This document shows positions 4,817 through 45,574 of a stretch of DNA of 64,000 nucleotides, in pieces; position 1 is the stretch's first letter; the number at the start of each line of letters is the position of its first letter. The translations under genes and the position numbers were made by a program. The notes beneath the pieces were generated by a model. That model made no database searches and was not told where the DNA came from. It saw only the letters and a list, made by a program, of their open reading frames with translations. The DNA comes from a virus. The stretch lies in the IMG/VR virus record IMGVR_UViG_3300025120_000017, positions 32,001 through 96,000 of that record, one strand, 5' to 3'.

Positions 4817-4830
4817 TGTAATGTTTTATT

Positions 4831-5575: not shown

Positions 5576-5607
5576 AAAAAAACGCTAGGAAAAAATCCTA
5601 GCGTTTT
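5576..5607 (-). terminator. intrinsic terminator after major capsid gene
   Basis: Stem ACGCTAGGA / TCCTAGCGT with a U-tract on the minus strand. Confidence 0.85.
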
Positions 5608-5641
5608 ATAAATTATGATCTAAGGGTTAATCCTTTAAGGA

Positions 5642-7344: not shown

Positions 7345-8979
7345 TTAATGATTTGTTTTGAAGTTTTTATTATAGCCTTCAACAATTCTTAGTCTTCTAG
7401 CTGCTATTGCATTTTCTACTTCCTCAGCAGTTTTTTGCACTGGCATCTTTGAAGATTCTTTAATCATTTCAATTGTAGTGTTAGCAAATGTTGCATTCCA
7501 AAATTCTGTAACAGAACTTTCAGTTAGAAATTCACAAATTGTAGCTCTTTTAACAATTGATGATTTTTTAGATTCAGATAATGCTTCCCATAATTCTGTG
7601 TATTTTCCTGGCATCATTGATTTCCAGAAAGGTTCCTCAGTTTTATTAAACTCATTTTCCTCTTTTACTAATTCTTGTTTCTCTTCAGCTTTTTGCTTCT
7701 TAGCATCATCGATAATAGAATCAATTTTTTTATATAATCCAGTTATATATGTTTCAGATAAAGAAACATCAACTTTCTTTTTACGTTTTATTGGATTTTC
7801 TGTAAGTGCGCCTTCTTCTAATTTTGTTACAACATCAGTTGCTTCATCAGACCACTTCTCAATCCCAGTAACAGTTTCAGTAACATGTTCAGACCAATCT
7901 TCGATTCCTGATACAGTTTCAGTAACATGCTCAGACCAATTTTCGATTCCTGATACTGTAGTAGTTGCTTCATCGGACCAATCTTCGATTGCAGTAACAG
8001 TTTCAGTAACATGTTCAGACCAATCTTCGATTCCTGATACAGTTTCAGTAACATGCTCAGACCAATTTTCGATTCCTGATACAGTTTCAGTAACATGCTC
8101 AGACCAATTTTCGATTCCTGTTAGTTTATCTTCAAGAACTTTAATTCTATCAGATTCTGATTTAATTGTAGTGAACTCTTCAACTACATGATTAGACCAA
8201 TCCTCAATACCTTTAATCTTATCATTAATTAAATTTATAGATTCCTGTAATACATTACTATTGATATTATCAGCAATTTCATCATTTTGCTTAATAATTG
8301 CATTTTGTGCTTTCTGTAATTTATCAAGGTTTTCTTTAAGAGAATCAATAGTTTCTTTAGTGTATTTTGTAAATCCGTTAAGATCATCTTCAGATATAAA
8401 CTTCTGGTTATCTATTACAGGCTTCTTAGATAATTTAGATTCTGCAACTTCATACATAAAAAAGTTTGAAGATTTTGCATTTTCAATACCATAAGATTCG
8501 TTAACTGTATTTAATACTGCATTTTCAAATCCAGGGTCTGCAACTAAATCATATGTAAATAATTTATGAATCTTTACAGACTTATCTTCAGTTACTGTAC
8601 CTGCAGCTCTTGATGATATATGAAGAGGTACTCCTGCATCAACTAATGCCTTTGCATTTTTTCCTGCATCTGTATCAAGTAACTTTATTCTACCGTATAC
8701 TTTATTATCTTTTTCATCAAACCAAATTTTCTCTATAACATGAGAAGAATTTTTTAAGCTTGTTTCAAAAACCTTAGGGTGATCTAATTCACCTACAGCT
8801 TTACCTTGCTCAACTACCTTTTGTAATTGTGTTAAGTGAGGTAAAAAACCATCCTTAGTATAAATTCGACCATTTCTATTTTCTTCACCTAACTCAGTAA
8901 ACATACCCTCAAGTGTATAAGGATCAGATGTTTTCCCAATACTGGTTGATGATTTTTCTACTAATAATAATTCTTTCAT
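7345..8979 (-). CDS. gp21: prohead protease fused to scaffold/core domain (gp21+gp22-like)
   Basis: NRNGRIY, GELDHP, ISSRAAG, YDLVADPGF; long C-terminal coiled-coil region with 14-aa repeats. Confidence 0.92.
   Translation of the reverse strand: MKELLLVEKSSTSIGKTSDPYTLEGMFTELGEENRNGRIYTKDGFLPHLTQLQKVVEQGKAVGELDHPKVFETSLKNSSHVIEKIWFDEKDNKVYGRIKLLDTDAGKNAKALVDAGVPLHISSRAAGTVTEDKSVKIHKLFTYDLVADPGFENAVLNTVNESYGIENAKSSNFFMYEVAESKLSKKPVIDNQKFISEDDLNGFTKYTKETIDSLKENLDKLQKAQNAIIKQNDEIADNINSNVLQESINLINDKIKGIEDWSNHVVEEFTTIKSESDRIKVLEDKLTGIENWSEHVTETVSGIENWSEHVTETVSGIEDWSEHVTETVTAIEDWSDEATTTVSGIENWSEHVTETVSGIEDWSEHVTETVTGIEKWSDEATDVVTKLEEGALTENPIKRKKKVDVSLSETYITGLYKKIDSIIDDAKKQKAEEKQELVKEENEFNKTEEPFWKSMMPGKYTELWEALSESKKSSIVKRATICEFLTESSVTEFWNATFANTTIEMIKESSKMPVQKTAEEVENAIAARRLRIVEGYNKNFKTNH
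7825..8118 (-). repeat. 7 x 42-bp in-frame tandem repeat (GIENWSEHVTETVS)
   Basis: Visible in both DNA and protein; includes a duplicated 126-bp higher-order unit. Confidence 0.95.
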
Positions 8980-12721: not shown

Positions 12722-13309
12722 CTATTTTTTATGAGTATATCCTAACTTAGACATTCTCTCATGATCTTCAGGTTTTTCTGCTTTATATGCTTTTCCTGTT
12801 TCAGTATCATACATCATATGGGGTTTAAACTCTTTTTCATTAGTTTCACCTGCAACACAATCATCACAGTCTTCATCATAAGAGCTATGTACATCACATG
12901 ATTCATTAACTACAGATTCAAATATCCATTGAGCAAGTTCCTCACCTTCCATAGATTTCATTACATTAATAATATCCTCAGCTACATAATTAAGCTCATC
13001 CCATATTGCAAATCTACCTAAATCCTCAGTAAAAGTTTCTCCATCAGATACATTAACTGTAAATGTTGTATCAGGTTTACCTTCACTGCCATCTCTACCC
13101 CAATCATGCGCTATCTCTAAAATAAATGAGTTTGCACGTTGTTTGAATTCATATGTAATTGTTCTTGAATACTTATCAACTCTAAATTTAGCTAATTTTA
13201 CTTTATATGGTTTAAGCTGTTTAGCTAATTCCTTGCTAACACCATTCCAAAAACCCTTATCATTATATGATTCTTTTGATTCATTTAAGAACTCTCTATA
13301 TCCTTTCAT
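12722..13309 (-). CDS. putative capsid-targeted internal protein (modular)
   Basis: Starts MKGYREFLNE; internal VVNE and TNE linkers. Confidence 0.7.
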   Translation of the reverse strand: MKGYREFLNESKESYNDKGFWNGVSKELAKQLKPYKVKLAKFRVDKYSRTITYEFKQRANSFILEIAHDWGRDGSEGKPDTTFTVNVSDGETFTEDLGRFAIWDELNYVAEDIINVMKSMEGEELAQWIFESVVNESCDVHSSYDEDCDDCVAGETNEKEFKPHMMYDTETGKAYKAEKPEDHERMSKLGYTHKK

Positions 13310-13327: not shown

Positions 13328-13903
13328 TTATATGGTTATAGAATTAAGCATTTCTTCTTTTCTAAATACTAAACTTCTTGGATCATCAGAAAGAGCAAAG
13401 GTAGTACTGTACATAGCGCTAAGCTTAGCACCAATATCTTTACCATTTTTATCAGTTACGATATATTCTTTAAATGCATTTGATGCTCTACCAAAGTCTT
13501 TAACAGTATAAACATTAGTGTCTGTGTTAAACTTAGAACCAATCTTTATTTTATTGAAGATTTTAGTTCCAAGCATGCTAATTTTGCTTCCAGATATATC
13601 TGCTTCATTAACATGCTTTGCTTCATCAAGTAATTCTTCTTTATCAGCCAAGAAATCATTCAATGAAATTCTAATTGCATTCAAATCATCTTCTGCTTCA
13701 TCAATTAACCTTTTGTGTTCTGGTACTTTAACATTTCTTGTTTTTGCAAGTACTTCTTCATGACAAGTATCAATTAACCCCCAAATTTCTGAAATTGTAA
13801 TAATATCTTTCTTATCTTTCTTAGAAAAATTCTTAGACTTCTTTATTTGTTTGATAGTTTCTTTGTCGTAATTTTCATTTAAAAAGCTTTTATAACTCTT
13901 CAT
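13328..13903 (-). CDS. putative capsid-targeted internal protein (modular)
   Basis: Starts MKSYKSFLNE; internal EAKHVNE linker. Confidence 0.7.
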   Translation of the reverse strand: MKSYKSFLNENYDKETIKQIKKSKNFSKKDKKDIITISEIWGLIDTCHEEVLAKTRNVKVPEHKRLIDEAEDDLNAIRISLNDFLADKEELLDEAKHVNEADISGSKISMLGTKIFNKIKIGSKFNTDTNVYTVKDFGRASNAFKEYIVTDKNGKDIGAKLSAMYSTTFALSDDPRSLVFRKEEMLNSITI

Positions 13904-13922: not shown

Positions 13923-15602
13923 TTATTCATAAGGAACAAAACTAAATGTCTTATCCATCTTATCTGAGTCATTATCCTTTTCTTCATATGAAATTACATC
14001 GCCAACCATTGCAATAGTGTCAACATAAAAGTTATAAACATCAAGACCTATTGTTTTACTTAAAACTTTCTTTGGTTTATTACCTAAGTATATTGCACCA
14101 TCTTCACGAAATTGATAATCATCTGTATCTTTTCTTAATTTCTTAAAAACGCTCTTAACTGTATCAGATAATGCTTTTGGTACTGATGCAACAAATTCAT
14201 CAAATGACTTATCTTCATTAACTTTTCCTAAAGCTTTCTTTAATTCAATGTTAAGTAATTCAAGAACATTAGTAATTCCATCAACTTCTTCATTTGTATA
14301 CTTTGCTTTAGCTTCTAACAAAAACTTAACCTTTTCAGATTTAGCAATAGTACATTTAGAATCTAAAGATTTAAAAGATTTAGAACAATCTGACTTTTCT
14401 CCTTCGTTCATTGAATCATAAAAAGATAACGCTTCATCAAGTTCAGTAAAGATTGCATCAGAATCTTTAACCATTTTTGATAAATTGATGTCTTTAACCT
14501 TTTTAGCAAATTCTACTGCCTTTAAGTTTACTTTAATACTTTCAAGAACTGGGATAATATCTAACTTATAACCTTTAGCAAAAGATTCCACAATAGAATC
14601 AAAATTGTCTCCGGTAATTTCTGTCATTTCATTTGTTCTTTCAAAAGAATTTACAGTATTAAGTAATATTTTGTTATTTGCTAATTTAATGAAAGATGTT
14701 TTAAAACTTTCGTTAGCCATTTTTATACTCTTTACACATTCAATAACAGCATACTCATTAGCGTTATCAAACATAAACTCAAGTACTGATTTAACATCTT
14801 TGTCAAAATAATCAACAACTCTTGTTACATTAAGAGCAGTTAATATAGATTCTTTCCCAAAGAATTCATTTTCACCGATAAAGAATTTGTTTTCGCCTTC
14901 ATCAGTTGCTACTATTTTAATATAGCCATTTTTTGTTTCCATTACAAATTCACCAGCATCTGCATTAAACATAGATAATGCTCTAAGTCCATAATTAAAT
15001 TTACCAGAAACTTTACCTTCAAATTTCTTTAGACTTGTTAGTGATGAGTTGGTTTCGTAATTTATTCCATTTAAGTTAAAAACATAACCACTTTCAGTAA
15101 TCATTACTGGTGATACATGTTCTTTTTCAACAATTGCTTTAACAGAGTTGCTTACCGCAAATTCCACCTTTTCATAATTTTCTAAAAATACTCTTAAAGA
15201 TGGTATAAATTTAAAAGCTTTTAATTTATGTAAGTTTTCTTTAATCTTAGATTCCTTCATAGGAACTAATTCATTAAGAGTGTCAATTGCAGACTGATAA
15301 GTTGCTCTATGATTACTTGAATCTAATGAGTTAAGAATCTGTTCTAATTGTACACCTACTTGATTTTCATTGATAAACTTAGAGTAATCATTGATGAATC
15401 CATCAACTTCTGAAATCCAATTGTATGCATTAAGAGTGTTCATAAAAGAACCGAATAATCCAGGATTAACACCTTTCTTAAATTCATATATACCTTTTGA
15501 GCAAATACTATTAGCTTCAGCATGATCTTTAACAGATTCATTAAGAGTTTCTAATTTTTCAATTAAGTTAAATTTTTCTTTGATATTGATTTTCATTTCC
15601 AA
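13923..15602 (-). CDS. putative prohead core/structural protein
   Basis: 559 aa with several LNE/INE/VNE motifs; TAAATATA motif upstream; in-frame ATG at 15596. Confidence 0.6.
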   Translation of the reverse strand: MEMKINIKEKFNLIEKLETLNESVKDHAEANSICSKGIYEFKKGVNPGLFGSFMNTLNAYNWISEVDGFINDYSKFINENQVGVQLEQILNSLDSSNHRATYQSAIDTLNELVPMKESKIKENLHKLKAFKFIPSLRVFLENYEKVEFAVSNSVKAIVEKEHVSPVMITESGYVFNLNGINYETNSSLTSLKKFEGKVSGKFNYGLRALSMFNADAGEFVMETKNGYIKIVATDEGENKFFIGENEFFGKESILTALNVTRVVDYFDKDVKSVLEFMFDNANEYAVIECVKSIKMANESFKTSFIKLANNKILLNTVNSFERTNEMTEITGDNFDSIVESFAKGYKLDIIPVLESIKVNLKAVEFAKKVKDINLSKMVKDSDAIFTELDEALSFYDSMNEGEKSDCSKSFKSLDSKCTIAKSEKVKFLLEAKAKYTNEEVDGITNVLELLNIELKKALGKVNEDKSFDEFVASVPKALSDTVKSVFKKLRKDTDDYQFREDGAIYLGNKPKKVLSKTIGLDVYNFYVDTIAMVGDVISYEEKDNDSDKMDKTFSFVPYE

Positions 15603-26499: not shown

Positions 26500-26529
26500 T
26501 TAAATATCAAGCAATAGCTAAAATGTTTA
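26500..26529 (-). promoter_or_regulatory. putative middle-type promoter TAAACA-N18-ATTTAA for the dUTPase-polymerase operon
   Basis: Recurrent motif at a divergent junction. Confidence 0.5.
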
Positions 26530-27029
26530 AGATGGTTGAAAATTTATTTACAGAAGATGGAAAAACTAATCCATTTGCAATATGTGAACATACCTTTAAG
26601 TGGATTTTAGAGCATATACCTAAAGGATCTACTATTGTTGAATTAGGTAGTGGGACAGGAACTAAAGAACTGTGTAAGCACTATACTGTATATTCTGTTG
26701 AAGATAACCTAAAATGGGTAAATTATGTTAATGAGTCTAATTACATACATGCTCCTTTAATATCATACGGAGATCATATGTGGTTTAATGAATCTATCAT
26801 TAAAGAAAGGTTGCCAAGTGATTATTCATTTTTATTAATAGATGGACCTCATGCACATCGAGTAGGATTTCATAAGCATATTAATCTGTTTAATCAAACC
26901 ATACCTTGGATTTTTGATGACACTCATGCTGATCATAATTTATTAGAGGCTATAAAATGCTCAGAATTATTAAAAAGACCATATAAAACATATCAAGGAG
27001 TAATTAAGAAATTTACTATAATTAAATAA
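26523..27029 (+). CDS. class I SAM-dependent methyltransferase-like protein
   Basis: IVELGSGTGT, YSVE, LIDGP, IFDD; start may be 26532. Confidence 0.8.
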   Translation: MFKMVENLFTEDGKTNPFAICEHTFKWILEHIPKGSTIVELGSGTGTKELCKHYTVYSVEDNLKWVNYVNESNYIHAPLISYGDHMWFNESIIKERLPSDYSFLLIDGPHAHRVGFHKHINLFNQTIPWIFDDTHADHNLLEAIKCSELLKRPYKTYQGVIKKFTIIK

Positions 27030-27051
27030 AATATACCATATAATAAATATA

Positions 27052-27636
27052 ATGAAAACTAGAACAGACTTATTAGAATTTATAATAAGTGAAAAAAAAC
27101 CAAAAAAATATCTTGAGATTGGAATACAACAGGGATTCAATTTTGATACAATAAAAGTACCTTATAAAGTAGGTGTTGAACCTTTTCCTAGGAGAGTTCA
27201 AGATAATGTACTAACTCTTAAATCAGATGATTTTTTTAAAAGTGATAATCCTGAATATAAGGGGTTTGATTTAATTTTTATAGATGGGCTACATACTGAA
27301 GATCAAACATGGAGAGATTTGCTTAATTCATTAGACCGTTTGAATCATGGAGGTATAATTGTAATGCATGATGCATTGCCTCATAATTTAAAATACACTA
27401 CTATGTCATGGTGTGGAACTTCATATAAAGCAATAATGAAAGCAGCACAGACACCTGGATTAATTGTTAAAACCTGGGAGCAAGATCATGGATGTGCAGT
27501 GATTGTTAAAGAAAGTAAGAATGATTTATATGTATCTACAATCACTACAGACTTTGAAGATCTTTGGAAAGATAATGCAGCTATTGTAGGTAAATCTAAT
27601 ACTGAGGAAATCATTAACTTTATTAAATCTTTATAA
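27052..27636 (+). CDS. SAM-dependent methyltransferase (Methyltransf_24-like)
   Basis: YLEIG..G, SDDFF, FDLIFIDGLH, GGIIVMHD. Confidence 0.88.
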   Translation: MKTRTDLLEFIISEKKPKKYLEIGIQQGFNFDTIKVPYKVGVEPFPRRVQDNVLTLKSDDFFKSDNPEYKGFDLIFIDGLHTEDQTWRDLLNSLDRLNHGGIIVMHDALPHNLKYTTMSWCGTSYKAIMKAAQTPGLIVKTWEQDHGCAVIVKESKNDLYVSTITTDFEDLWKDNAAIVGKSNTEEIINFIKSL

Positions 27637-27638
27637 TA

Positions 27639-28193
27639 ATGGAACTTAGCATATTATTATGTTCACTGCCTAACAGACTTAAACAATTTTCAGTAATAGA
27701 AGAACTTACAAAACAGGCTAAAGGTAAGCCAGTTGAAATTTTATATCTTGGTGATAATTGGCAAATGAGCGTAGGTGAAAAGAGAAATAACTTAATATAT
27801 CTTGCAACTGGTAAATACATATGTTTTGTAGATGATGATGATCGGGTTGAGCCTAATTATGTTAGTGATATTTTAGATGCAATAAATCAACATGGTACAG
27901 ATTGCATTAATTTTCAAGCATCTGTTAGTATAAACGAATCTAATCCTATGATTTGCCATTATTCAAAAGAGTTCACTGAAAATGTAAATTTACCAACAAT
28001 GTATTTAAGACAACCTAATCATTTAATGGTATGGAAAAAGAGTATTGTTGAATTGTTTCCAGAAATTAATGTAGGTGAAGATAATCTCTTTGGTGAAAAT
28101 ATGGCCAAAAAAAATTATAGTGAATATAATATAGATAAAGTCCTATACCACTATGATTTTAATTCAAATACAACTGAAGCACAAAAAAGATAA
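27639..28193 (+). CDS. glycosyltransferase family 2
   Basis: LSILL, GEKRN, ATGKYICFVDDDD, GED. Confidence 0.88.
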   Translation: MELSILLCSLPNRLKQFSVIEELTKQAKGKPVEILYLGDNWQMSVGEKRNNLIYLATGKYICFVDDDDRVEPNYVSDILDAINQHGTDCINFQASVSINESNPMICHYSKEFTENVNLPTMYLRQPNHLMVWKKSIVELFPEINVGEDNLFGENMAKKNYSEYNIDKVLYHYDFNSNTTEAQKR

Positions 28194-28195
28194 TT

Positions 28196-28780
28196 ATGAA
28201 AAACAAGATTTTAATAACCGGTACAGGTAGAAGCGGTACAACTATTCTTGTAAAATTGTTATCATTACTAGGATTAGATACAGGATACCAAAACCTAACA
28301 AGTGATGAAATAGAACAGTATATAAATCAAAATAGCAGAGGAGGTCTTGAAATCTATTTAGATCCAGATAATGAAAATTATCCATTAATATGTAAAGCAC
28401 CTCAATTTTATAATAGAATACCTGAATTATCTAAGAAGTACAAAATTAAGAAAGTATTTGTACCTATGAGAGATTTAGAAATAACAGCAAAATCTAGAGC
28501 AAAGCATGGAGTAAGTCCAGGCGGGTTATGGAATGCAAGTGATGTAAACAGCCAAATGAATCATAATGCTAAAGTAGTTTATCAAATAGCAATAGATTGT
28601 GCATCAAATGACATACCTTTAGATTTTATAGACTTTGATAGATTTACAAGCGATAGCTTATATGCATATAATGTTTATAGTAGATTTTGTGAATTAGCAT
28701 CTGATAATAAACATGACTTTACATCATTCTTAAACATTTATAAAAGTATAATAGATCATAGTAAAATAACAACTAAATGA
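28196..28780 (+). CDS. sulfotransferase-fold protein
   Basis: ITGTGRSGTT (PAPS 5'-PSB loop), KAP, MRD...S (3'-PB). Confidence 0.75.
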   Translation: MKNKILITGTGRSGTTILVKLLSLLGLDTGYQNLTSDEIEQYINQNSRGGLEIYLDPDNENYPLICKAPQFYNRIPELSKKYKIKKVFVPMRDLEITAKSRAKHGVSPGGLWNASDVNSQMNHNAKVVYQIAIDCASNDIPLDFIDFDRFTSDSLYAYNVYSRFCELASDNKHDFTSFLNIYKSIIDHSKITTK

Positions 28781-29511
28781 AAGAAGTAGACATTGTAATT
28801 ATAAGTAATGCAAAAGATGGAGCTCTTTTAAATGAAACTCAGAGATGTATTGAATCTCTTTATGAATCAGAAGATGCATTTATTATACAATTTAATGTAT
28901 TTGTGGTTGAGAGCAATAAAGATGTTAATTATGATACATATTATAATGTAAAAACTATTTACACTGAATTACCTTTTGGTTATCATAGATACTTAAATAT
29001 TGGTAGAAAAGCAGGAAATGCTGAATATGTGGTTCTTTGTAATAATGATTTAACATTTGATAAGAATTGGGCATCAATCGCAATTGATGTAATGAAAAAG
29101 AGAAATATATGGAGTGCAGGATGCTGTAACCCAAATAAAAAAAATCATATATCATATATTGAATCTGGTAAAGAATATGAAGATGGTTGGGCAGTATCAA
29201 ATCATATCACGGGATGGTGTATATTCCAAAAGCGAGAAATATATGAACATATAGGAGATCTTGATGAAGATTTTGAATTTTGGTATTGTGATAATGATTA
29301 TTCAAGAACTTTACAAGAACATTTATTTTATCATACTCTTATAATTGGCTCAAGAGTATTTCATCATAATGGTAATTTAGGAGTTACTGTAAAAACCGAA
29401 GAAGATGAAGATAGAAAAGCCTACCTTACATCAGGTGGTGAAAAAACATATCAAAACAAGTGGGGTGTTGGAGGTTGGATGACTCTTAAGAAATTAACTA
29501 AAAAAGACTAG
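28777..29511 (+). CDS. glycosyltransferase family 2
   Basis: VDIVII, LNIG, YVVLCNND, GWC, IGDLDEDF..WYCDND. Confidence 0.88.
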   Translation: MKEVDIVIISNAKDGALLNETQRCIESLYESEDAFIIQFNVFVVESNKDVNYDTYYNVKTIYTELPFGYHRYLNIGRKAGNAEYVVLCNNDLTFDKNWASIAIDVMKKRNIWSAGCCNPNKKNHISYIESGKEYEDGWAVSNHITGWCIFQKREIYEHIGDLDEDFEFWYCDNDYSRTLQEHLFYHTLIIGSRVFHHNGNLGVTVKTEEDEDRKAYLTSGGEKTYQNKWGVGGWMTLKKLTKKD

Positions 29512-29530
29512 AAATAATCCTAGTCTTTTT
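29501..29530. terminator. bidirectional intrinsic terminator between convergent genes
   Basis: AAAAAGACTAG-N8-CTAGTCTTTTT. Confidence 0.8.
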
Positions 29531-29531: not shown

Positions 29532-30197
29532 TTATTTTTTGTCTACATAATGTGGAAGTCCTTTTTCCTTAGTCTTTGCAAACTTTCTTAACGTTTTTTC
29601 AGGAAGCTCAGAAATTTTAATAATTTCTTCAGCATATTCAGGTTCTAATTCTTCTTTTGTTATATTGCCTCTCTTATATTGAAGTGCAATAGCAAATAAC
29701 CTTCGCTGTGCTTTAGAATCAGCTCTCTCAAGCAAAGAATCTAAATTTTCCATAACTTCTATGCCAGTTTTAGATTCAATAAAATCTTTAACCATTTTAT
29801 AAAACTCTTCTCTATCATCAGAGTTTTTAAGTAGTTTAGCAGCGTCTCTTAATTTACTTTTAAGTATAGTAAACATCATTCCCATTTTTTCTGAAACTTC
29901 ATCTAGTGTATCTGATACACCTTCGGTTAAAAACACAACACTATCATTAGATGAATTATCTAACTTAAGTCTATATTTCTTAACAGCAGAATCAATGACT
30001 TTTTGAATGTCTGGGTATTCAGCGCCAGCTTTAACCAATTCATCTATACTTATTATGAGAGTATCTTTTTTATTACTATCATCTATGTATATTTCAAATC
30101 CTTGGGTAAACTTTCCTAACTTTTTTTCTATAGTTTTTTTAGCATTTTCCAAAGATTCATTAATATTCACGGAATAAAAATTATCAAGATCTTTCAT
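29532..30197 (-). CDS. modular putative internal protein with C-terminal DUF3008-like domain
   Basis: MKDLDNFY..INE start; SKAQRRLFAIAL..KRG...LRKFAKTKEKGLP. Confidence 0.7.
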   Translation of the reverse strand: MKDLDNFYSVNINESLENAKKTIEKKLGKFTQGFEIYIDDSNKKDTLIISIDELVKAGAEYPDIQKVIDSAVKKYRLKLDNSSNDSVVFLTEGVSDTLDEVSEKMGMMFTILKSKLRDAAKLLKNSDDREEFYKMVKDFIESKTGIEVMENLDSLLERADSKAQRRLFAIALQYKRGNITKEELEPEYAEEIIKISELPEKTLRKFAKTKEKGLPHYVDKK

Positions 30198-30206
30198 TTA
30201 CTAATA

Positions 30207-30464
30207 TTATTTTTTTACAACCTTTGCAATAACTTCTTTATTACCAGCTACTATTGCTTTATGTTCTGATCTATTAATACTATATGACTTTCCGTCAATT
30301 ATAACATTTTTTTGGTTAAGAGATTCAACTTTTAAATCACCAGAAGATTTAGCAGGTTCAGGAATTACTGTTTTAGATTCTTCTTTAGAACCTTCAGTAG
30401 TTTCAACATTCTTTAACTTCTCAACAGCCTCGTCTAAAGTTTTTTCAGTTTTCTTTTTAGCCAT
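30207..30464 (-). CDS. hypothetical protein
   Basis: 85-aa Lys/Glu-rich ORF within the operon. Confidence 0.7.
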   Translation of the reverse strand: MAKKKTEKTLDEAVEKLKNVETTEGSKEESKTVIPEPAKSSGDLKVESLNQKNVIIDGKSYSINRSEHKAIVAGNKEVIAKVVKK

Positions 30465-30475
30465 AACGTGTATTT

Positions 30476-31669
30476 TTATTTTTTGTTTTTAAATTTTCGC
30501 CAATCACTAAAACTATAATAGTTTTCATTTATAGTTTCTTTAGCAATCTTTGAATGTATTAGCCTTACATAATTATTTATATACTTTTTCATATTTATAT
30601 CTATAATTGGAGTAATTTTTTTACGCTCTTTTCTAAATGATGAAAATAGTATTTTATAAATATCTGCAAGATTTGGGTTATTATTAATAATATCTTGTAT
30701 TTTTTTATTCTTTATAAATGATGTATTAAGTTTAAACTCAGGCATTAAAGCAAATGTAGGTTTCTTTAAATCAAAGTCTTCTATAAAAATAGAATTATCA
30801 TCTATGAACATTGATATTAATGTACTTAATAAATCTATATATCTTTCATCAGGACTACTTCCTATTGCATTTACCTTTGTCATTGAATCAGTTTCACCAA
30901 GCCATTCAATGAACTTATATATCAATAATCCTATTTCATCTGATGAAGATTTATTAACTTTTTTATGTAATGATAGTTGATGAAATATCGGATCTATAGT
31001 TTTTGCTGTGTAAACTTTATCATTGTTGCTAAACTCAAATATAAAACCTTCAATAGATTTGTCAATGTCTCCATTTAATGTAGTTTTCTTTAATCTAGGA
31101 TTTAAAATTTTAATAATATGTCGTGTAAAACTATTTGTGTTAAAACTAATCATTAAATCAGACTTATCAGTTTTTATAAAATTCAAAATCTTTTCTTTTT
31201 GTAATTCGCTTAACTCTCCATTAAAATACACTTTAGGTGTAGATGTTTTAAGAAGTTTTGACCACTTAAGAAGTGTTTTAGTGTCATTTATAATAGAATT
31301 ATCATCTTTATCTTCTAATCCTATTAGATGTGTTAATATAAGTCCATTCTTAGGAATATTTTCATATATAACATTAGTAGGCTTATTATTATAAAAATAT
31401 TCAAAAAAGAAGAATACTTCATCAGGAATTTTTGATAAATCTAATGAATTTATATGAGCAATAGGCTTTTCATATAGAGATGTTATAGTTCTTTGTATTT
31501 TATTAAGAGGATATCTCTTATCTCTAGCAAAAAATATTAATTCATTGTTGCTTTTCTTAAATCCAAATTTAGTTCCAGTAAGTTTTTCAGATACTTTTAC
31601 ATTTGAATTAAGAAGTTGCTTCAGAAAGTCTTCACCTAGTTCGTTATAGAAATCTTTTATTTCCTTCAT
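30476..31669 (-). CDS. RNA-ligase-like nucleotidyltransferase with capsid-targeting-like N-terminus
   Basis: SEKLTG (motif I variant), FFFEY (III), EGFIF (IV), AK (V); starts MKEIKDFYNE. Confidence 0.6.
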   Translation of the reverse strand: MKEIKDFYNELGEDFLKQLLNSNVKVSEKLTGTKFGFKKSNNELIFFARDKRYPLNKIQRTITSLYEKPIAHINSLDLSKIPDEVFFFFEYFYNNKPTNVIYENIPKNGLILTHLIGLEDKDDNSIINDTKTLLKWSKLLKTSTPKVYFNGELSELQKEKILNFIKTDKSDLMISFNTNSFTRHIIKILNPRLKKTTLNGDIDKSIEGFIFEFSNNDKVYTAKTIDPIFHQLSLHKKVNKSSSDEIGLLIYKFIEWLGETDSMTKVNAIGSSPDERYIDLLSTLISMFIDDNSIFIEDFDLKKPTFALMPEFKLNTSFIKNKKIQDIINNNPNLADIYKILFSSFRKERKKITPIIDINMKKYINNYVRLIHSKIAKETINENYYSFSDWRKFKNKK

Positions 31670-31701
31670 TCTTTACGAATTTATAGTTTTAATATTTAAT
31701 T

Positions 31702-31730
31702 AAACAACAAAGACGGTCCGAAGACCGTCC
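31702..31730 (-). terminator. intrinsic terminator with UUCG tetraloop
   Basis: Minus strand GGACGGTC-TTCG-GACCGTCT-TTGTTGTTT. Confidence 0.85.
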
Positions 31731-31760
31731 TTATAATATTTATTATTAGAATTTAAGATG

Positions 31761-32744
31761 CTAATTAAGAGCTTGGCTTAAATAAAAATCAACATCACCA
31801 CTAACTTTAGCGTAGTCCTTTTTAATATTAGGCTCTTTTAAGATACTTGAAATTATTTTCATATCTACATCGCCTTGTGGATATGACTGATCTAATCTAC
31901 TTGATAAATCATTTAAAACGCTAGCAACATCAGGCTCATCTTTTTCTATATCTTTAATAGTAAACTCAAGTTGTCTTTGAAGATACGGTGAATCTATAGT
32001 ATTTCCTTCATTAACTCCAGACTCTTCAGACATATTCATATATCTATAAAGTTTATTATATAATGCTCTAAGATCTTTTGTTAAAGTGCGAATTTTTTTG
32101 CTATCATCTTTCATGATCATACTGTAAATATGTTCACCATCTGCATCATCTTTAATTAACGCTCTAAGATCGGCAAAATCCTTAGCAGCCTGAGCAGCAT
32201 TTTCAACAACTAATGATTCTTTGATCTTATGCTTTCTCATAAAATCTCTCGCCATATCAATTGCATTTCTTAAATCAGTAACATCTAGTTCTGCCCAGGT
32301 TATATTACCTTGTAAAAGTACTTCAGATTCATCATCCCACTTTGCAGTAGTTCTCATATCACCTTGATCATAAATTAATTCTTCAAGATCTCCAATTTCC
32401 TCAACATAATCATTATTTGATTCATTAATATTTGTGGCATTAATTACTCTTTTACCAAGTTTTGATAATTTATAATGAGTTTCGCCATTTTTCTCAAAAG
32501 TTACTAAATATCTGGAATTCTTTTTAATCCACTGAGGACTAGTTTTTCTACCGCTCTCTTCATTAGCAGATTTAATGTATTCCATTAAGTCAGTTTTACA
32601 ACAAGATCCTTGCTCAGATACAAATCCAAGAATTTTTTGTCTAACTGGAGCATTTGCACCAACTACTGTTGATGCATACTTTCCATATTTTCTCTTAACT
32701 TGAATAGTTCTTCTTTCGTTTAAAAAGCTTTTATAACTCTTCAT
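31761..32744 (-). CDS. putative capsid-targeted polyprotein (4 modules; first is wHTH-like)
   Basis: Start moved to MKSYKSFLNE (32744); INE, VVE and VNE linkers. Confidence 0.75.
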   Translation of the reverse strand: MKSYKSFLNERRTIQVKRKYGKYASTVVGANAPVRQKILGFVSEQGSCCKTDLMEYIKSANEESGRKTSPQWIKKNSRYLVTFEKNGETHYKLSKLGKRVINATNINESNNDYVEEIGDLEELIYDQGDMRTTAKWDDESEVLLQGNITWAELDVTDLRNAIDMARDFMRKHKIKESLVVENAAQAAKDFADLRALIKDDADGEHIYSMIMKDDSKKIRTLTKDLRALYNKLYRYMNMSEESGVNEGNTIDSPYLQRQLEFTIKDIEKDEPDVASVLNDLSSRLDQSYPQGDVDMKIISSILKEPNIKKDYAKVSGDVDFYLSQALN

Positions 32745-32769
32745 TTTAAATGTTTTTATTTTTGATGAT

Positions 32770-33774
32770 TTAAAATACAATCATAGATTCATCTCCATTA
32801 ACTTCAACGAATTTTATATTATTTGATTTAAGTATTTTAATTACATCTTTCATTGTCATCATTCCAGATATGGATTCATCTCCGATAACAAAAGACATTT
32901 TCTTAGATAATTTTTTTAATTGAGCCGCAGTAGATTCATCAAAATCATCAAATTCAATTTCAGATAATTCCCCAGCATAATCAGCAAGCTCTGATGGTAC
33001 ATCAGATTCATTAACCTTCCCAAAAGATTCTTCAACTCTATCAGAAACAACAATTCCTAAGTATTTCTCAATTTCTTCTTTTGAGAATCCTTTCTTAGCC
33101 AATTCATCGATTATCTTTGTTAAAGTACTTCCTACAATAGAGTCAAGTTTTCTTTTCATAAGCTTAACATCGCCTGCTTCACCAATAAACTCTTCAGCAT
33201 TTTCTTTATCTTCAGCATCAACATCCTCAACATCGTATTCTTCATCACCGACTTTAAATGTTTTTTCGTCATTTGCAATTGCCTTAGCTCTAGCAGCACT
33301 GAATGCATTTCCTTCTTTAACAGATTCAAATTGATGTCCTACAATTTTAAGACCTGCTACGCCTGGAAAAAATTCCCCTTGATCTGTTTGTATTCTACCG
33401 CTTGATGCTGAATGACGAGGTTCAGAAAAACCTTTAACTACAATAGCATCACCTCTAAAGTCTTTAGTCTTATAAGGTAATTTAACAACTTTTCCGGTTT
33501 TTTCATCTACTAACTTAGCTGATTCATTAACTGATTCGTTAGCAAATCTTGCCACGCCTTTATCAAATGCCTTATGATATTTTTTAGGAATATGGTCAGA
33601 TTTTAGGTAACTAATAAGTTCCTCTGCGCTATCCCACATTTGGTTAGCTGCCTCATCTGCATCGCTTGTATATTGACCAGCTGCATTAATGATTTCCATT
33701 GCAATATCCTGGTCAAGTCCATACATTTCATTAACAGACTTGCTTTTATTTATAAACCTTTTATAACTTTTCAT
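32770..33774 (-). CDS. putative capsid-targeted polyprotein (about 5 modules)
   Basis: MKSYKRFINKSKSVNE; linkers NESVNE, SVKE, IGE, VNE. Confidence 0.75.
   Translation of the reverse strand: MKSYKRFINKSKSVNEMYGLDQDIAMEIINAAGQYTSDADEAANQMWDSAEELISYLKSDHIPKKYHKAFDKGVARFANESVNESAKLVDEKTGKVVKLPYKTKDFRGDAIVVKGFSEPRHSASSGRIQTDQGEFFPGVAGLKIVGHQFESVKEGNAFSAARAKAIANDEKTFKVGDEEYDVEDVDAEDKENAEEFIGEAGDVKLMKRKLDSIVGSTLTKIIDELAKKGFSKEEIEKYLGIVVSDRVEESFGKVNESDVPSELADYAGELSEIEFDDFDESTAAQLKKLSKKMSFVIGDESISGMMTMKDVIKILKSNNIKFVEVNGDESMIVF
33001..33180 (-). repeat. 180-bp module, copy 1 (copy 2 at 34568-34747)
   Basis: EAGDVKLMKRK...KVNESD, 56/60 aa identical to copy 2. Confidence 0.95.
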
Positions 33775-33786
33775 TTTAAATCTTTT

Positions 33787-34515
33787 TTATTTTATTTTCA
33801 ATAAGTCATTTATAAACTTTTCAACATCCTTTCCTTTACTTAAAATAACATCAGCAGTTTCATCATCTTCACTAAATGGTATAGGATATTCTATTGCAAT
33901 TCCATTACCTGCTTTGGATATATTAGCGTCATATCTATCAATATCTTGGATTGATGTGTTTTTAACTTTACCTGTCTTATTAAAATTTGATAGTACTGAA
34001 ATTAAAGTACTAATCTCATCTTCATCAAAAACCATTTCAGATTCACCATTAAAATCTATAGCAACACCCTGAGATGCTTTAGATACCGATACATCAGATT
34101 CATTAACTGATTCATTCATTGGAATATCAACACCTAGTAATATTACGCTAACAGTTGGAGTACCACCTACGCTAAATCCTGGCAAAAATGCTTTAGCTTT
34201 TTTTCCTTTTTTAGATATTGATTCGCCTGCCTTCTTTATAATATTTCTAATCTTTGCAGTTTTTGGATCATCTTCATCAGTAAATGATGAATATCCATTA
34301 TCGTCATCATATACTTTAATATCTTTAAGAGCTTTAGCAGTAAAATCAAACTTTAAAACAGGAAATTCCTTTCTTCCATCCATGTTAAGTTCAAGTTTAG
34401 GATTTTGTAATAAACCTGTCTTCATCATGACATCTTGTGCATATTTAATCTGTGCATCTGTAAAATTATCATTAACATGCTTTGCTTCATTAACAAAACT
34501 TTTATAACTTTTCAT
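33787..34515 (-). CDS. putative capsid-targeted polyprotein (2 modules)
   Basis: MKSYKSFVNEAKHVN; NESVNE linker. Confidence 0.75.
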   Translation of the reverse strand: MKSYKSFVNEAKHVNDNFTDAQIKYAQDVMMKTGLLQNPKLELNMDGRKEFPVLKFDFTAKALKDIKVYDDDNGYSSFTDEDDPKTAKIRNIIKKAGESISKKGKKAKAFLPGFSVGGTPTVSVILLGVDIPMNESVNESDVSVSKASQGVAIDFNGESEMVFDEDEISTLISVLSNFNKTGKVKNTSIQDIDRYDANISKAGNGIAIEYPIPFSEDDETADVILSKGKDVEKFINDLLKIK

Positions 34516-34528
34516 CTTAAACTATTTT

Positions 34529-35143
34529 TTATTTTTCAGTGGATGCCATATTTCCTTCACCGTCTGCATCTGATTCATTAACCTTTTTAAAAGATTCTTC
34601 AACTCTATCAGAAACAACAATCTCCATATACTTTTCGATTTCCTCTTTTGAAAAACCTTTCTTAGCTAATTCATCGATAATCTTCTTTAGTGTAGATCCT
34701 ACAATAGAGTCAAGTTTTCTTTTCATAAGCTTAACATCTCCTGCTTCAGTAATTCCTGATAATGCTTCAGTAACTTTTGCAGTTATTTCTTGGTCATCAT
34801 TAACAACTTCATCACCATCTCCGGATTTTGTTGGTTTACCTTTTGCTACTTCTTTATCTTCTATTTCATCAGATGATTCATCACCATCACCCATATCTTT
34901 AGAAACCTCTTTGCCAGCACCGTTTCCATTTTCTTGGTCTTCGTTATCTGCTTTTACCATTTCTGAAACTTCTCCGTCCCATTCTGATTCTATTTCGTTA
35001 AAGAATTTTTTCTTTTCTCCAGTAGATAAGTCAGCAGGTGAATCCGCGCCGTACTCAGCTAATTTTTCTTTAAAGAAATCTGCATATTCTTTTTGCTTTT
35101 TAGACTTCTCTTCTTCTAGTATAATTTGTCCTAAACTTCTCAT
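34529..35143 (-). CDS. acidic putative prohead core/internal protein
   Basis: MRSLGQIILE start; acidic; carries the duplicated 60-aa module. Confidence 0.7.
   Translation of the reverse strand: MRSLGQIILEEEKSKKQKEYADFFKEKLAEYGADSPADLSTGEKKKFFNEIESEWDGEVSEMVKADNEDQENGNGAGKEVSKDMGDGDESSDEIEDKEVAKGKPTKSGDGDEVVNDDQEITAKVTEALSGITEAGDVKLMKRKLDSIVGSTLKKIIDELAKKGFSKEEIEKYMEIVVSDRVEESFKKVNESDADGEGNMASTEK
34568..34747 (-). repeat. 180-bp module, copy 2
   Basis: Near-identical to 33001-33180. Confidence 0.95.
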
Positions 35144-35165
35144 AGTGAGTTTTATTTTTTGTTTT

Positions 35166-35173
35166 TATATTTA
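35166..35173 (-). promoter_or_regulatory. putative late promoter TAAATATA (representative copy)
   Basis: Same octamer at 4347, 15616, 16474, 37381, 40355, 45002, 56709, 62347 and 62984, each upstream of a gene start. Confidence 0.55.
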
Positions 35174-35179
35174 ATCTAT

Positions 35180-35842
35180 TTATTTAATTCCATTCACAGG
35201 CATTCTAACCATTTCCTTATTAAACCGCTTTTCTTTATTTTCTTTAAATCCAAATCTTTTATAAAATTCTTTAAGTCTAGATGTTGAGCTTCCAAATTTA
35301 TCTGTTGTATCAAGAGTTAATATAAAACTTTGGTTATCTGCAAATTTAATAAGATCTTCCATGATTCTTGATCCTATTCCACTATTTTTATGAGTTTTAT
35401 TTACTTCTAAATAATTTAGCATAATAACATCTTCATTAGTTGTTATTGGATAATAGGATAATTTAATATCTTCAACAGGAAACTTCTTTAGTATGCTATC
35501 AGCAAATTCTTTAACCATTTTGGTTTTAGTTTTAATATCTTCTTTAAGGCCATCATATTTTTTATAACTTAATAGCCAACCTCTTAGCACTTTAGTAATT
35601 GAATCTGCGTGAGTTCCTTCAGGTTTTTCTATTGTTGTAATATTAACAGTAATATCACCATCTTGTAAACTTACTACTCCCGCATCTTGAAGAATTTTAT
35701 ATTCTTTTTCTCCATATGTATTTTTAATAAAATATGCAACTTGTCCTAAAAGATCATATTGACTGTTTTCAACCATTACATTAGGTATAGTACCAATAGG
35801 ATATAATTTAGATTGATTAATAAATTTTTTTAACCTCTTCAT
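35180..35842 (-). CDS. GNAT acetyltransferase domain protein with capsid-targeting-like N-terminus
   Basis: LEVNKTHKNSGIGSRIM (motif A), LKEFYKRFGF (motif B); starts MKRLKKFIN. Confidence 0.8.
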   Translation of the reverse strand: MKRLKKFINQSKLYPIGTIPNVMVENSQYDLLGQVAYFIKNTYGEKEYKILQDAGVVSLQDGDITVNITTIEKPEGTHADSITKVLRGWLLSYKKYDGLKEDIKTKTKMVKEFADSILKKFPVEDIKLSYYPITTNEDVIMLNYLEVNKTHKNSGIGSRIMEDLIKFADNQSFILTLDTTDKFGSSTSRLKEFYKRFGFKENKEKRFNKEMVRMPVNGIK

Positions 35843-42195: not shown

Positions 42196-42702
42196 TTAAT
42201 ATCTTGTTATCTTTTTTATTGCTCGTTTGTCCCAAATACAACCTGATGAAACATCCCAAGGTCTAATCCAACTTCCTATAGGTCCCCACGGGTGTTTAAT
42301 TTCTATTCCTTGCCATCCATCTTTTTCAACATCTTCCCATTTTATACCACTAACAGTATCTGGAAATCCTATTAAACCATATTTTGCCTCAAAGTCTTTT
42401 TGAGACATGTCTTTACCTAATCTTAATACGTTTTTATAGTTTATCTCTATTTTATGAAGGTTTCCTGCTTCCCAATCTGGCATATTTTGTCTAACCCAAT
42501 CAATCCACTCAGTTCCAAATGAATACCATAAACCGCTAGGCTTAAAGTTCATATAGCTTTTAGCAGGAGTGTTTTTTTGTTTTGTGTTTCGAGTTTTTAT
42601 AGTATAATCAGATGACATTATAACTTTATCACTTGATTTTATTTTAGCATAATCTTCATCTACTATAATTTTATTTTCAAAAAACTTATCTAACCTTTTC
42701 AT
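42196..42702 (-). CDS. hypothetical protein, possible ADP-ribosyltransferase-like fold, capsid-targeting-like start
   Basis: Start moved to MKRLDKFFE (42702); KPSGLWYS..KNVL..GWQGIEI..IWDKRAIK. Confidence 0.55.
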   Translation of the reverse strand: MKRLDKFFENKIIVDEDYAKIKSSDKVIMSSDYTIKTRNTKQKNTPAKSYMNFKPSGLWYSFGTEWIDWVRQNMPDWEAGNLHKIEINYKNVLRLGKDMSQKDFEAKYGLIGFPDTVSGIKWEDVEKDGWQGIEIKHPWGPIGSWIRPWDVSSGCIWDKRAIKKITRY

Positions 42703-43506: not shown

Positions 43507-43751
43507 TCGCTATCAGCTTGATTATTATTTATCTCATCTTCTGCTATTTTCTTAATAAGCATTTCAAACTTAACAGATGTTGTTCCACTATAAATATTTT
43601 CCATTTCATCCATTTTTCTAGCAGCATCTAAAAAAGCTTCTAAATTAACTCCATTTCCACCTTTTTTATTTATAATTTGCATTTGCTTTAAAACAAGCTT
43701 TTCCATATCATTGCTTGTGTTCCTATGATTCATTTCTTGTATAGTTTTCAT
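43497..43751 (-). CDS. hypothetical protein
   Basis: 84-aa ORF, translationally coupled to neighbours. Confidence 0.6.
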   Translation of the reverse strand: MKTIQEMNHRNTSNDMEKLVLKQMQIINKKGGNGVNLEAFLDAARKMDEMENIYSGTTSVKFEMLIKKIAEDEINNNQADSDWG

Positions 43752-44329
43752 CAGTATGTAATATCTTTTTTATCTTGTGCTATAATTGATTTTATTTCCT
43801 TCACAAGCTTTGCAGTTGTTTTAGGATACCTATTTGTTCCAAAGTTATTGTAGAAACTTATAAAGCCATCTTCAGCTATGTCAATAAATAAAGTATCTTT
43901 TGCATTAACAAAGCCTTTCTTAGTAACACAGTCATATTCAAAAAATACATCATATTCACCATCAGCGTTATTAACGCCAATATCATATGTTGCTTTAGGG
44001 CCATTAGGAAACTTGCTTGTTAAAAACGCCGCAACTGATTCAGGCGTTATAGGTGCTTTAGCTTCTAAAATATTTCCATCTTTATCAAAGAAATCATCTG
44101 GGTCTAAATGATAATATCCCATTATGTCACTCACAATATCTTGATGGTCTGAATTATCCATATCATATTCCTTCTTAATGAACGCTTTAATTTTATCATC
44201 AGAAGGTTGACCTTTTCCTAAAACTTTTTTAATCTTAGCGATAGAATTATATTTATGATCTCTGTCGCTATCTTCACTTAAATGTGAATACTTCTTAGCT
44301 TCGTTTAAAAATTCGTTTAAGCTTTTCAT
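43751..44329 (-). CDS. putative capsid-targeted internal protein (2 modules)
   Basis: MKSLNEFLNE start; ILE linker. Confidence 0.7.
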   Translation of the reverse strand: MKSLNEFLNEAKKYSHLSEDSDRDHKYNSIAKIKKVLGKGQPSDDKIKAFIKKEYDMDNSDHQDIVSDIMGYYHLDPDDFFDKDGNILEAKAPITPESVAAFLTSKFPNGPKATYDIGVNNADGEYDVFFEYDCVTKKGFVNAKDTLFIDIAEDGFISFYNNFGTNRYPKTTAKLVKEIKSIIAQDKKDITY

Positions 44330-44330: not shown

Positions 44331-44984
44331 TTAAAATTTTAATTTCTTTCCTAGTGCTGCACCTATTGCAGTACCTACAAGTCTACTTGTGAGTACATTA
44401 TATAAAGGCGAGTTATCTTTAATGCCTAAAGTGTTTGCTAATAATTTACCTATAGATTTACCGAAAGCTAAACCTCCGATACCTCCTAGTATAGAACCAA
44501 ATATTCCTTCATTAAGTAATTCGATTTGTGATTCATTAACGCTTTCAGGATTCATAAATATATCAATAATAGCAGATGCCTGTTCTTTAGTTAATTCCAT
44601 TTCAACATCTTCCTCATCTTCATCTTCTTCCATATCAGCTAAAATGTCACTAAACTTTCTAACCTTCACGGTCCCAGTAGGTATATCACCACTTCCCAAT
44701 GAATTACCATTAGGTAATGAAACTCCACCCATTCCGTTTACATTTGCTCCGGTTGCTGCTCCAAGATCTTCTCCAACTGCATCAGCATTTGTTTCATATA
44801 TTTCAATAGAGTTATTTTCCAGTTCATCTAAAAATCCAACTATAGAATCTTCATTATTTGATTCATAATAATTAGTTGATGTCATTGCTATTCCTTGCTT
44901 TGACCATGTACCATCTTTATATATTTCTTGAGCTTCCCTAGCGTCTCTTACTGCTACTTCTATGTAATATTTGTACTTGCTCAT
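44331..44984 (-). CDS. modular protein with capsid N-arm-like motif and C-terminal Gly-rich amphipathic segment
   Basis: Start moved to MSKYK (44984), downstream of TAAATATA; VNGMGGVSLP..GSGDIP; LLNE-GIFGSILGG. Confidence 0.7.
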   Translation of the reverse strand: MSKYKYYIEVAVRDAREAQEIYKDGTWSKQGIAMTSTNYYESNNEDSIVGFLDELENNSIEIYETNADAVGEDLGAATGANVNGMGGVSLPNGNSLGSGDIPTGTVKVRKFSDILADMEEDEDEEDVEMELTKEQASAIIDIFMNPESVNESQIELLNEGIFGSILGGIGGLAFGKSIGKLLANTLGIKDNSPLYNVLTSRLVGTAIGAALGKKLKF

Positions 44985-45010
44985 TTTTAAGTTATTCTTT
45001 TTATATTTAA

Positions 45011-45574
45011 TCAACCTTTCATAAACTTCATTTCAGTAGTAGTGTAATTAAACGTTACATCAAATGTATCAAAACCTGCAATATTTTCACTATAACTTAT
45101 TTGAAATTCACTTATGGCACTAAATATGCAATCTTTAAATACTCTACTAAACATTATAGTTCCATCATTATCTAATATATGTACTGGTAAATCAAACATA
45201 TATGCCTTAGGATTACTAAAGTCATATTTCTCATGAAATGCATCTAACATTATCCAATAATTAACATATCCATTTATCATTTTAAATGTTATAGTTAATG
45301 ACTTATCACTTAAATCTTGTGGATTTATACTTGCTCTATTTTGTCTAGTTATTGCAGTAGGCGTATACTTATCTTTGTAAAAAGGTTCAGGGACATCGTA
45401 CCCAAATGTAGGTATAGTGATTGCTTGCACGGTTCCTTTAACAAGTTCTATTGGGCTATCAATATATGATGGCATTCTTTTTACATATGGTCTATAAAAA
45501 GCATCAATTTCTGTGGATATGAAATCTTTAGGAAACCCTACATAAAATAAATCTTTTCTACTTAAATCACTCAT
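45011..45574 (-). CDS. tail tube-fold protein (gp3/gp19-like)
   Basis: VQAITIP, LTITF, NY, ILD, F.DC...IS, FDVTFNY pattern. Confidence 0.6.
   Translation of the reverse strand: MSDLSRKDLFYVGFPKDFISTEIDAFYRPYVKRMPSYIDSPIELVKGTVQAITIPTFGYDVPEPFYKDKYTPTAITRQNRASINPQDLSDKSLTITFKMINGYVNYWIMLDAFHEKYDFSNPKAYMFDLPVHILDNDGTIMFSRVFKDCIFSAISEFQISYSENIAGFDTFDVTFNYTTTEMKFMKG

Follow-up and report, generated by a model that had tools for sequence, protein, structure and literature searches.

The three internal proteins of bacteriophage T4 are the textbook example of proteins that are injected together with phage DNA, and IPI* is an anti-restriction protein. As read from NC_000866, IPII and IPIII start with MKTYQEFIAE/A and IPI with MKTFKEF...ITE/A (here and below the slash marks a known or putative cleavage position). 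For IPIII the first 10 residues are enough for packaging; in the T4 tag residues 4 and 7 serve targeting and residues 8 and 10 processing, and gp21 cleaves after L/I-x-E (PMC9026906). Many head and ejection proteins of phiKZ, 201phi2-1 and SPN3US are likewise cut after Glu, often multiply, by a gp21-related protease (PMC9026906; PMC10052503), and the polyvalent proteins of phages and conjugative elements, which are large and carry several conflict-related domains, are predicted to be packaged with the DNA (Iyer et al. 2017, PMC5512222). Here we analyzed a 64,000-nt stretch of virus DNA (the window: bases 32001-96000 of the 171,834-bp IMG/VR virus record IMGVR_UViG_3300025120_000017), in which an array of genes at 29532-35842 and several genes elsewhere begin with related N-terminal peptides, hereafter called tags. 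We propose, with a probability of roughly 0.6, that the products of the tagged genes are T4-like internal head proteins, expanded in number and partly concatenated.

The source phage is a distant, uncultured jumbo relative within the T4 superfamily. The record has a completeness of 67% (CheckV); the window has a G+C content of ~30%, and its minus strand carries nearly all genes. The T4-superfamily head genes in the window encode a Gp23-type capsid protein, a gp20-type portal, gp2-/gp4-like head completion proteins and an S77 protease-scaffold fusion. The nearest capsid relative belongs to an uncultured 462-kb phage (47.6% identity), followed at ~30-34% identity by Lak megaphages, Sphingomonas phage PAU, Tenacibaculum phage pT24 and the Chryseobacterium phages MA9V-1 and MA9V-2. 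When the island was compared with 50,697 phage records by blastn, zero matches were obtained.

The initial annotation had listed ten related N-termini, and each of them is the ATG start of a minus-strand open reading frame (ORF); the longest ORF of 31761-32744 and that of 42196-42702 begin at a TTG, 12 and 17 codons, respectively, ahead of the tagged ATG. Translated in six frames, the entire record contains 14 copies of a strict form of the tag, M[KR]x[YLI]xxF[LIVY][NK]E, all of them 0-12 codons after a stop and opening ORFs of 76-397 aa, as compared to a mean of 0.002 expected from composition-preserving shuffles of N-termini. Adding looser tags (MRSL.., ..EY.., ..EH..; examples are MRSLGQIILE, MKSLKEYY and MRSLDEHKLINE) brings the genome total to ~25-29. 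The codons of the tag vary synonymously among copies (AGT/AGC, TTA/CTT/CTA, AAT/AAC, GAA/GAG), thus the peptide is conserved and not its DNA. Behind the tag the proteins are unrelated, as had been claimed: an all-vs-all BLASTP of 29 tagged bodies (first 16 residues removed) gave no match at E<=1e-3, the sole exception being a 59-aa module that 34529-35143, which bears a variant tag, has in common with 32770-33774. The exact pattern MK[ST]YKxF[LIV]NE was present in 29 IMG/VR stretches, no more than 33 codons from a stop in 28 cases, and a Gp23 capsid gene was found on 8 of the 10 large contigs bearing it, including all four complete ones. Altogether, the tag is real, far beyond chance and more widespread than the list of ten genes. 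Other tagged proteins elsewhere in the genome contain an R2K ATP-grasp domain, DUF5824 or DUF7403. A 93-aa tagged protein (MKNLNEFLNE) is encoded outside the window at genome positions 3298-3579 (plus strand) and has a tag-like VLNEFLNE/S again near its C-terminus.

In the strict tags position 4 is Y/L/I, position 7 is F, position 8 is L/I/V/Y and position 10 is E, and these are the key positions of the T4 capsid-targeting sequence. Counted back from the putative cut, an aromatic P7, P4 Phe, P3 Leu/Ile/Val and P1 Glu are common to this phage and T4, and the longer leaders found here (14, 16 and 25 aa) parallel the 19-aa leader of T4 IPI. A prohead protease of the S77, gp21-like type, fused to a coiled-coil scaffold, is encoded at 7345-8979 (minus strand; Pfam Peptidase_S77 with 44.7 bits at a cut-off of 27, PHROG 207 at 1e-41). 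It matches T4 gp21 by BLASTP at E=9e-13, with GELDHP opposite LNHP and ISSRAAG opposite VSSRGLG, i.e. the catalytic His and Ser align, and it contains TVNE161/S exactly where the protease domain ends and the scaffold starts. The gene 5642-7327 (minus strand; Pfam Gp23 1e-36) encodes a gp23-type major capsid protein with a propeptide; in the BLASTP alignment with T4 gp23 (E=1e-8) the N-terminal LMQTWKPVVE pairs with T4 LLNKWKPLLE. The SLNE-type site that had been noticed near the N-terminus of the capsid protein lies in SSLNE at residues 47-51, and SSLNE51/NN is the predicted maturation site, with LNE51 at most 4 residues from the T4 cut site LTE65. The P2 residue covaries across phages: tags, capsid and scaffold share xNE in this phage and in MA9V-2, whereas the motif is IAE/ITE/LTE in T4, ILE in pT24 and LME in PAU. 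This covariation ties the tags to the head protease, which would cleave them. The proposal that the tag is a T4-type capsid-targeting sequence is thus well supported by the key positions, the S77 protease, the motif common to the predicted capsid and scaffold sites, and the association with Gp23 contigs.

Several further observations concern the head genes. In the scaffold part of 7345-8979, six tandem 42-nt (14-aa) repeats, GIE(N/D)WSEHVTETV(S/T), occupy 7871-8120 (minus strand); that they form a docking site for the tags is one idea. In the cultured relative Chryseobacterium phage MA9V-2 (L086) a 1207-aa protease-scaffold fusion (1985-5608) is studded with xNE sites, and an 82-aa tagged protein (MKTFTYFINE...FVNE) is encoded between a portal-side gene and the protease gene. 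The tags read in MA9V-1 and MA9V-2 are MKNFFSFINE, MKTFTYFINE, MKTFFTFVNE and MKNFFQFINE, together with LNE in the capsid protein. The 559-aa product of 13923-15602 (minus strand), whose gene is flanked by a gp15-like gene on one side and two tagged genes on the other, belongs to no known family; it contains [VIL]NE at four places, beginning with TLNE22/S, and may be another processed head protein. The untagged 227-aa protein 44331-45014 (minus strand) contains NVNGMGGVSLPNG, which closely resembles the mature N-terminal segment of the capsid protein, SVNGMGAVSLPEN, as well as the sites ESVNE/S and LLNE/G and a hydrophobic glycine-rich tail. Small proteins with its GMG(A/G)V(S/K)LP motif are encoded downstream of UvsW in the relatives L035, L054 and L060.

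We then turned to the sequences behind the tags. The tagged protein 32770-33774 (minus strand) is a five-module mosaic, in which the leader ends with SVNE16/M and the modules meet at ESVNE84/S, ESVKE154/G, FIGE199/A and KVNE256/S. An exhaustive HMMER search with this protein returned 307 proteins of 65-1656 aa, and every match was module-wise: residues 17-84, 85-154, 155-199 and 200-256 were found at any position, and several of them stand alone. A [VILMF]xE motif was located within 2 residues of 156 of the 199 module boundaries (78%), compared to 15.8% at random positions of the same proteins, a difference to be read with the caveat that the boundaries were drawn from related sequences and hence are not independent events. 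The AlphaFold2 (AF2) model of 32770-33774 resembles beads on a string (predicted template modelling score, pTM, 0.38). The beta-rich module 85-154 reaches a predicted local distance difference test score (pLDDT) of 94-98, whereas values below 50 are seen at 79-82, 199-201 and 251-276 and a shallower dip at 151-160; minima thus coincide with all four internal junctions. A Foldseek search of this model against the PDB gave no match at E<=0.001, and for the beta module only weak Tudor/SH3-like rows, too little to assign a fold.

In the four-module mosaic 31761-32744 (minus strand) the tag MKSYKSFLNE10/R is followed by a module at residues 11-108 and by the sites INE108/S, VVE181/N and VNE246/G. 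As modelled by AF2, module 11-108 has the topology H-H-H-E-E-H (pLDDT 62-88), and its best 50 VIA-align rows were all winged-helix regulators (VanR, MarR, PadR, AphA), with Z scores of 7.9-10.2 over 70-85 residues, only moderately above the usual background of the tool. By its predicted structure, this module is a winged-helix DNA-binding domain. Twelve homologues of 31761-32744 (P0002-P0013) place it beside different neighbours, including modules of 32770-33774 and the DUF3008 module of 29532-30197, and its flanks E10 and N107-E108 are invariant whatever the neighbouring modules are. In two of them (P0009 and P0010) a DUF3008 module stands directly behind the tag, ahead of the winged-helix module.

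Module exchange is also visible within the window, where 59 aa are duplicated between 33001-33177 and 34568-34744 (86% nucleotide and 93% amino-acid identity). The identity sets in directly behind I-x-E/A and stops at VNE/S, and the flanks are 31% identical. The second copy lies in 34529-35143 (minus strand), a mosaic with the variant tag MRSLGQIILE/EE, where it is bounded by ITE133/A and VNE190/S. Homologues of this protein in L023 and P0015 retain the leader, and PHROG 28651 was matched at E=8.8e-7; the plus-strand ORF 34539-35174 is a shadow of this gene. The neighbouring 33787-34515 (minus strand) encodes a tagged two-module protein with MKSYKSFVNE10/A and NE135/SVNE139/S. In the genome the junction ES[VI]NE[SG] occurs five times, four times in tagged proteins and once in 44331-45014. 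Modules of the mosaics measure 45-100 aa, and among the cargo domains one winged-helix module and one GNAT domain were recognised, most modules being without known fold or family. The analysis yielded no evidence that speaks for or against an anti-defence role of the cargo. From module arrangement and junctions, a polyprotein organisation is supported for three or four genes of the array.

This is less than the initial annotation had claimed, namely that most of the tagged genes consist of short modules and that each of them is a polyprotein. The first statement was overstated: there are three clear mosaics and about three more genes with one or two candidate internal sites, but four genes are single-domain or have no internal site. 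The second fits 31761-32744, 32770-33774, 33787-34515 and 34529-35143, whose modules shuffle, duplicate or stand alone, but not 30476-31669 (ligase-like), 35180-35842 (one GNAT body), 42196-42702 and 43751-44329.

The genes from 35842 to 31761 are co-oriented with gaps of 10-20 nt; the array starts by overlapping the stop of UvsW and ends at a terminator-like hairpin (31734-31707, minus strand). The sequence TTAAATA, similar to the T4 late motif TATAAATA, precedes UvsW and many tail genes, and by these motifs the array may be co-transcribed late. The upstream motif AAATAAAA is uninformative on timing because it also precedes replication genes, and a scan for sigma-70 promoters was uninformative as well (44 sites versus 50 expected). 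The island varies between relatives. A syntenic 7.9-kb contig (L023) is devoid of the GNAT gene, 33787-34515 and 32770-33774, and its homologue of 31761-32744 has a different C-terminal module after SLIIE/G. In 53 loci anchored on UvsW (39-75% identity), tagged or mosaic genes were always located downstream of UvsW; MKHIKLFEQFINE is an example of their leaders, and the mosaics measure 400-1100 aa.

If T4 is taken as the model, the first 10-25 residues (P7 aromatic or Leu, P4 Phe, P3 Leu/Ile/Val, P2 Asn, P1 Glu) would be the targeting sequence, which would dock the protein on the scaffolding core during prohead assembly. The gp21-type protease 7345-8979 would then cut after the Glu of the tag, as predicted for LNE51 of the capsid protein and its own VNE161. 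In three or four genes of the array several independent 45-100-aa modules, joined typically by E-S-V-N-E with S, G or A after the cut, would follow behind one tag. With a single targeting event several small proteins would thus enter the head, where they would be separated and from which they would depart together with the DNA upon infection; a released module would be about the size of T4 IPI*. Whereas tags, motif, protease, mosaicism with boundaries at the motif and island variability are observed, we infer core binding, cleavage, retention in the head, ejection and the roles of the modules. The tagged proteins are probably cargo delivered with the DNA. A more general rule is offered tentatively, and we give it somewhat less than even odds: in the T4 superfamily beyond the T-evens, cargo may be of a plug-in type, so that any small protein placed between protease motifs behind one leader would be loaded, freed and injected, the linkers acting as points of module duplication and of exchange between phages.

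Several observations weigh against this interpretation. The frequency of xNE, which the initial annotation had named as a check, proved a weak test: [VIL]NE is ~1.8-fold denser in the tagged bodies than in the rest of the proteome (0.30 versus 0.17 per 100 aa; 13 copies versus 4.0 expected, and 86 versus 49.5 expected elsewhere), but the tripeptide is common throughout this AT-rich proteome, and its 86 copies in untagged proteins include replication enzymes. The tripeptide alone thus marks no site, and since its raw density is only modestly raised, the polyprotein case rests on boundaries and shuffling. The Glu that precedes the GNAF module never varies, tandem repeats included, and may be part of that domain; module 85-154 has more distant homologues without the Glu junction, and the AF2 model of 31761-32744 is confident for one module only. 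The leader of one homologue of the GNAT protein ends with ILD and not with E, and late timing of the array is read from motifs only. A tag-like start is present on 30476-31669, apparently an ordinary enzyme. T4 gp61.1, which is small and encoded next to the primase gene, also begins with MKTFKEFIKE, thus a tag-like N-terminus is no proof of packaging.

The tags could be real, removed leaders while the internal junctions stay uncut; the mosaics would then be intact multidomain internal proteins and E-S-V-N-E a flexible spacer or a short stretch of DNA or peptide homology for recombination. Such an arrangement would account for module exchange exactly at the linkers and for the module homologues without a Glu junction, the codons GTT AAT GAA are identical in four of five junctions (9-15 nt of microhomology), and whole multidomain packaged proteins are known, e.g. 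the N4 virion RNA polymerase (PMC5512222). We nevertheless consider it unlikely: the linker closes with the hydrophobic-Asn-Glu tripeptide that is also found in the tags and at the capsid and protease-scaffold sites, its Ser uses both TCN and AGC codons and the peptide is therefore under selection, and a short-motif protease is expected to cut exposed, low-confidence linkers in the prohead (PMC9026906). Less probable still, at about one chance in ten, the mosaics are parts of the prohead core or scaffold that are chopped and expelled before DNA packaging, like gp22/gp67/gp68 or the propeptides of phiKZ and SPN3US, and would thus help assembly instead of being delivered. The modules are small folded domains (beta-rich with pLDDT 94-98; winged helix) and not coiled coils, the close syntenic relative without three of the genes counts against an essential structural role, and the protease-scaffold fusion already supplies the scaffold function, even though T4 core proteins and SPN3US propeptides are cut repeatedly and mostly leave the head (PMC9026906; PMC10052503) and an acidic low-complexity stretch of 34529-35143 resembles the tails of gp67/gp68. 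That the common N-terminus reflects another constraint (translation initiation without Shine-Dalgarno sequence, or an N-terminal stability signal) and its likeness to T4 is convergent is highly improbable, for although no start is commoner than AUG AAA in this AT-rich genome, A-rich leaders stand before many genes including those of replication, and T4 gp61.1 and the RNA-ligase-like gene begin similarly, the conserved elements are the aromatic residue, Phe, Leu/Ile/Val and Glu and not the A-rich, synonymously varying codons, leaders of 14-27 aa still have hydrophobic-x-Glu as their last residues and a conserved mature start behind it, the exact tag goes together with contigs that encode a Gp23 capsid, and the motif recurs internally at module boundaries.

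The remaining tagged genes differ in what follows the leader. In 35180-35842 (minus strand), whose start overlaps the stop of the UvsW-like helicase gene, the leader MKRLKKFINQ...MVE25/NSQYD precedes a body with a C-terminal GNAT domain (residues 131-201), recognised by a narrow margin as Acetyltransf_7 (27.5 bits, cut-off 27) and Acetyltransf_1 (23.8 bits, cut-off 20.7). In three homologues the leader is 15, 25 and 27 aa long, keeps M-K-x-L-x-x-F each time and is followed by the conserved mature start N[ST]QYD; since leader length varies before this constant start, the leader behaves like a removable propeptide. One homologue carries an extra module after GINE/S. The tagged protein 29532-30197 (minus strand) has a 14-aa leader, MKDLDNFYSVNINE14/S, candidate junctions LTE92/G and LLE157/R and, at residues 159-216, a DUF3008 module (Pfam, 31 bits, cut-off 24). 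Two tagged genes adjoin the head-gene block, 12722-13309 (MKGYREFLNE, internal ESVVNE136/S) and 13328-13903 (MKSYKSFLNE, internal HVNE100/A), both on the minus strand and without a Pfam or PHROG family. Two more minus-strand genes, 42196-42702 (MKRLDKFFE9/N, PHROG 8582) and 43751-44329 (MKSLNEFLNE10/A, candidate ILE89/A), have at most one weak internal site each, none of them convincing.

The gene 30476-31669 (minus strand), with the tag-like start MKEIKDFYNE, is doubtful as cargo: it follows the terminator, has its own TTAAATA motif and looks like a separate transcription unit for an Rnl2-type RNA ligase. ESM Atlas feature scores of 0.96-0.97 link it to clusters bearing PF09414 RNA_ligase, and EKLTGTKF at residues 28-35 matches EKIHGTNF at 34-41 of T4 Rnl2 (nucleotidyltransferase motif I, KxxG). 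No Pfam or NCBIfam match was found, phmmer against PDB sequences was empty, and BLASTP revealed no relation to a 423-aa tagged protein of the wider clade; a locus search anchored on this gene found L023 alone. By these sequence features it is probably an Rnl2-type RNA ligase, and MKEIKDFYNE may simply be the own N-terminus of the enzyme.

On the opposite strand, a block of five genes at 26523-29511 (plus strand), which by eye resemble glycosyltransferase and methyltransferase genes, runs towards the cargo genes, and a bidirectional terminator hairpin (29501-29530) lies where the two meet. In T4 itself, gp61.1 (NC_000866 18966-19130) is a 54-aa hypothetical protein with a near-perfect capsid-targeting sequence.

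If the proposed expansion of T4-kind internal proteins is true, distant uncultured relatives of T4 have scaled them to dozens of cargo proteins per genome, in an economical format of one address tag and many cleavable modules. Tag and junction motif together would then provide a sequence-only rule for proteins acting in the first seconds of infection, which are the likeliest source of new anti-defence factors. If the more general plug-in rule holds, injected effector and anti-defence mini-proteins could be read from sequence. Metagenomes already show hundreds of module families; the modules found here recur in >300 metagenomic proteins, nearly all of them unannotated. The same format would also offer a design, taken from nature, by which T4-type capsids could be loaded with several foreign proteins.

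A search of one literature library retrieved no paper linking 'polyprotein' with capsid targeting and a prohead protease, and the array resembles several described systems in part. Like the T4 core proteins gp22/gp67/gp68, which are cut inside the prohead, the mosaics have several L/I-x-E-type sites, but the core proteins are conserved and degraded to small peptides, whereas the genes described here are dispensable between relatives and encode folded modules. With the polyvalent proteins they share several unrelated domains per polypeptide, extensive mosaicism and predicted delivery with the DNA. Polyvalent proteins are, however, large enzyme arrays, often with their own metallopeptidase, whereas the proteins of the array have 200-400 aa and mostly unassigned mini-domains, and for their release they would rely on the head protease together with a T4-type tag; in the mosaics (204-334 aa) Pfam, PHROG and NCBIfam revealed no peptidase and almost no known domains, which sets them apart from that class. 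The giant phages phiKZ, 201phi2-1 and SPN3US likewise use a three-residue Glu motif with several sites per protein. There, the motif is S/A/G-x-E, the cuts free a single mature protein of its long propeptides, and a decapeptide tag common to the substrates is not known, in contrast to the independently mobile folded modules seen here.

Closest are the T4 internal proteins IPI, IPII and IPIII (and Alt). Both systems have the same key positions in the leader (MKTYQEFIAE versus MKSYKSFLNE), longer leader variants, an S77 protease with a hydrophobic-x-Glu motif, at which cleavage would also occur here, a conserved tag in front of bodies without mutual similarity, loci that differ from one relative to the next, and products of 50-190 aa. 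Unlike in T4, with its 3-4 tagged proteins, this phage has ~14 strict and 25-29 loose tags, Asn is nearly fixed at P2, the protease is fused to the scaffold, and several unrelated modules follow one another after a single tag, with shuffling at their junctions.

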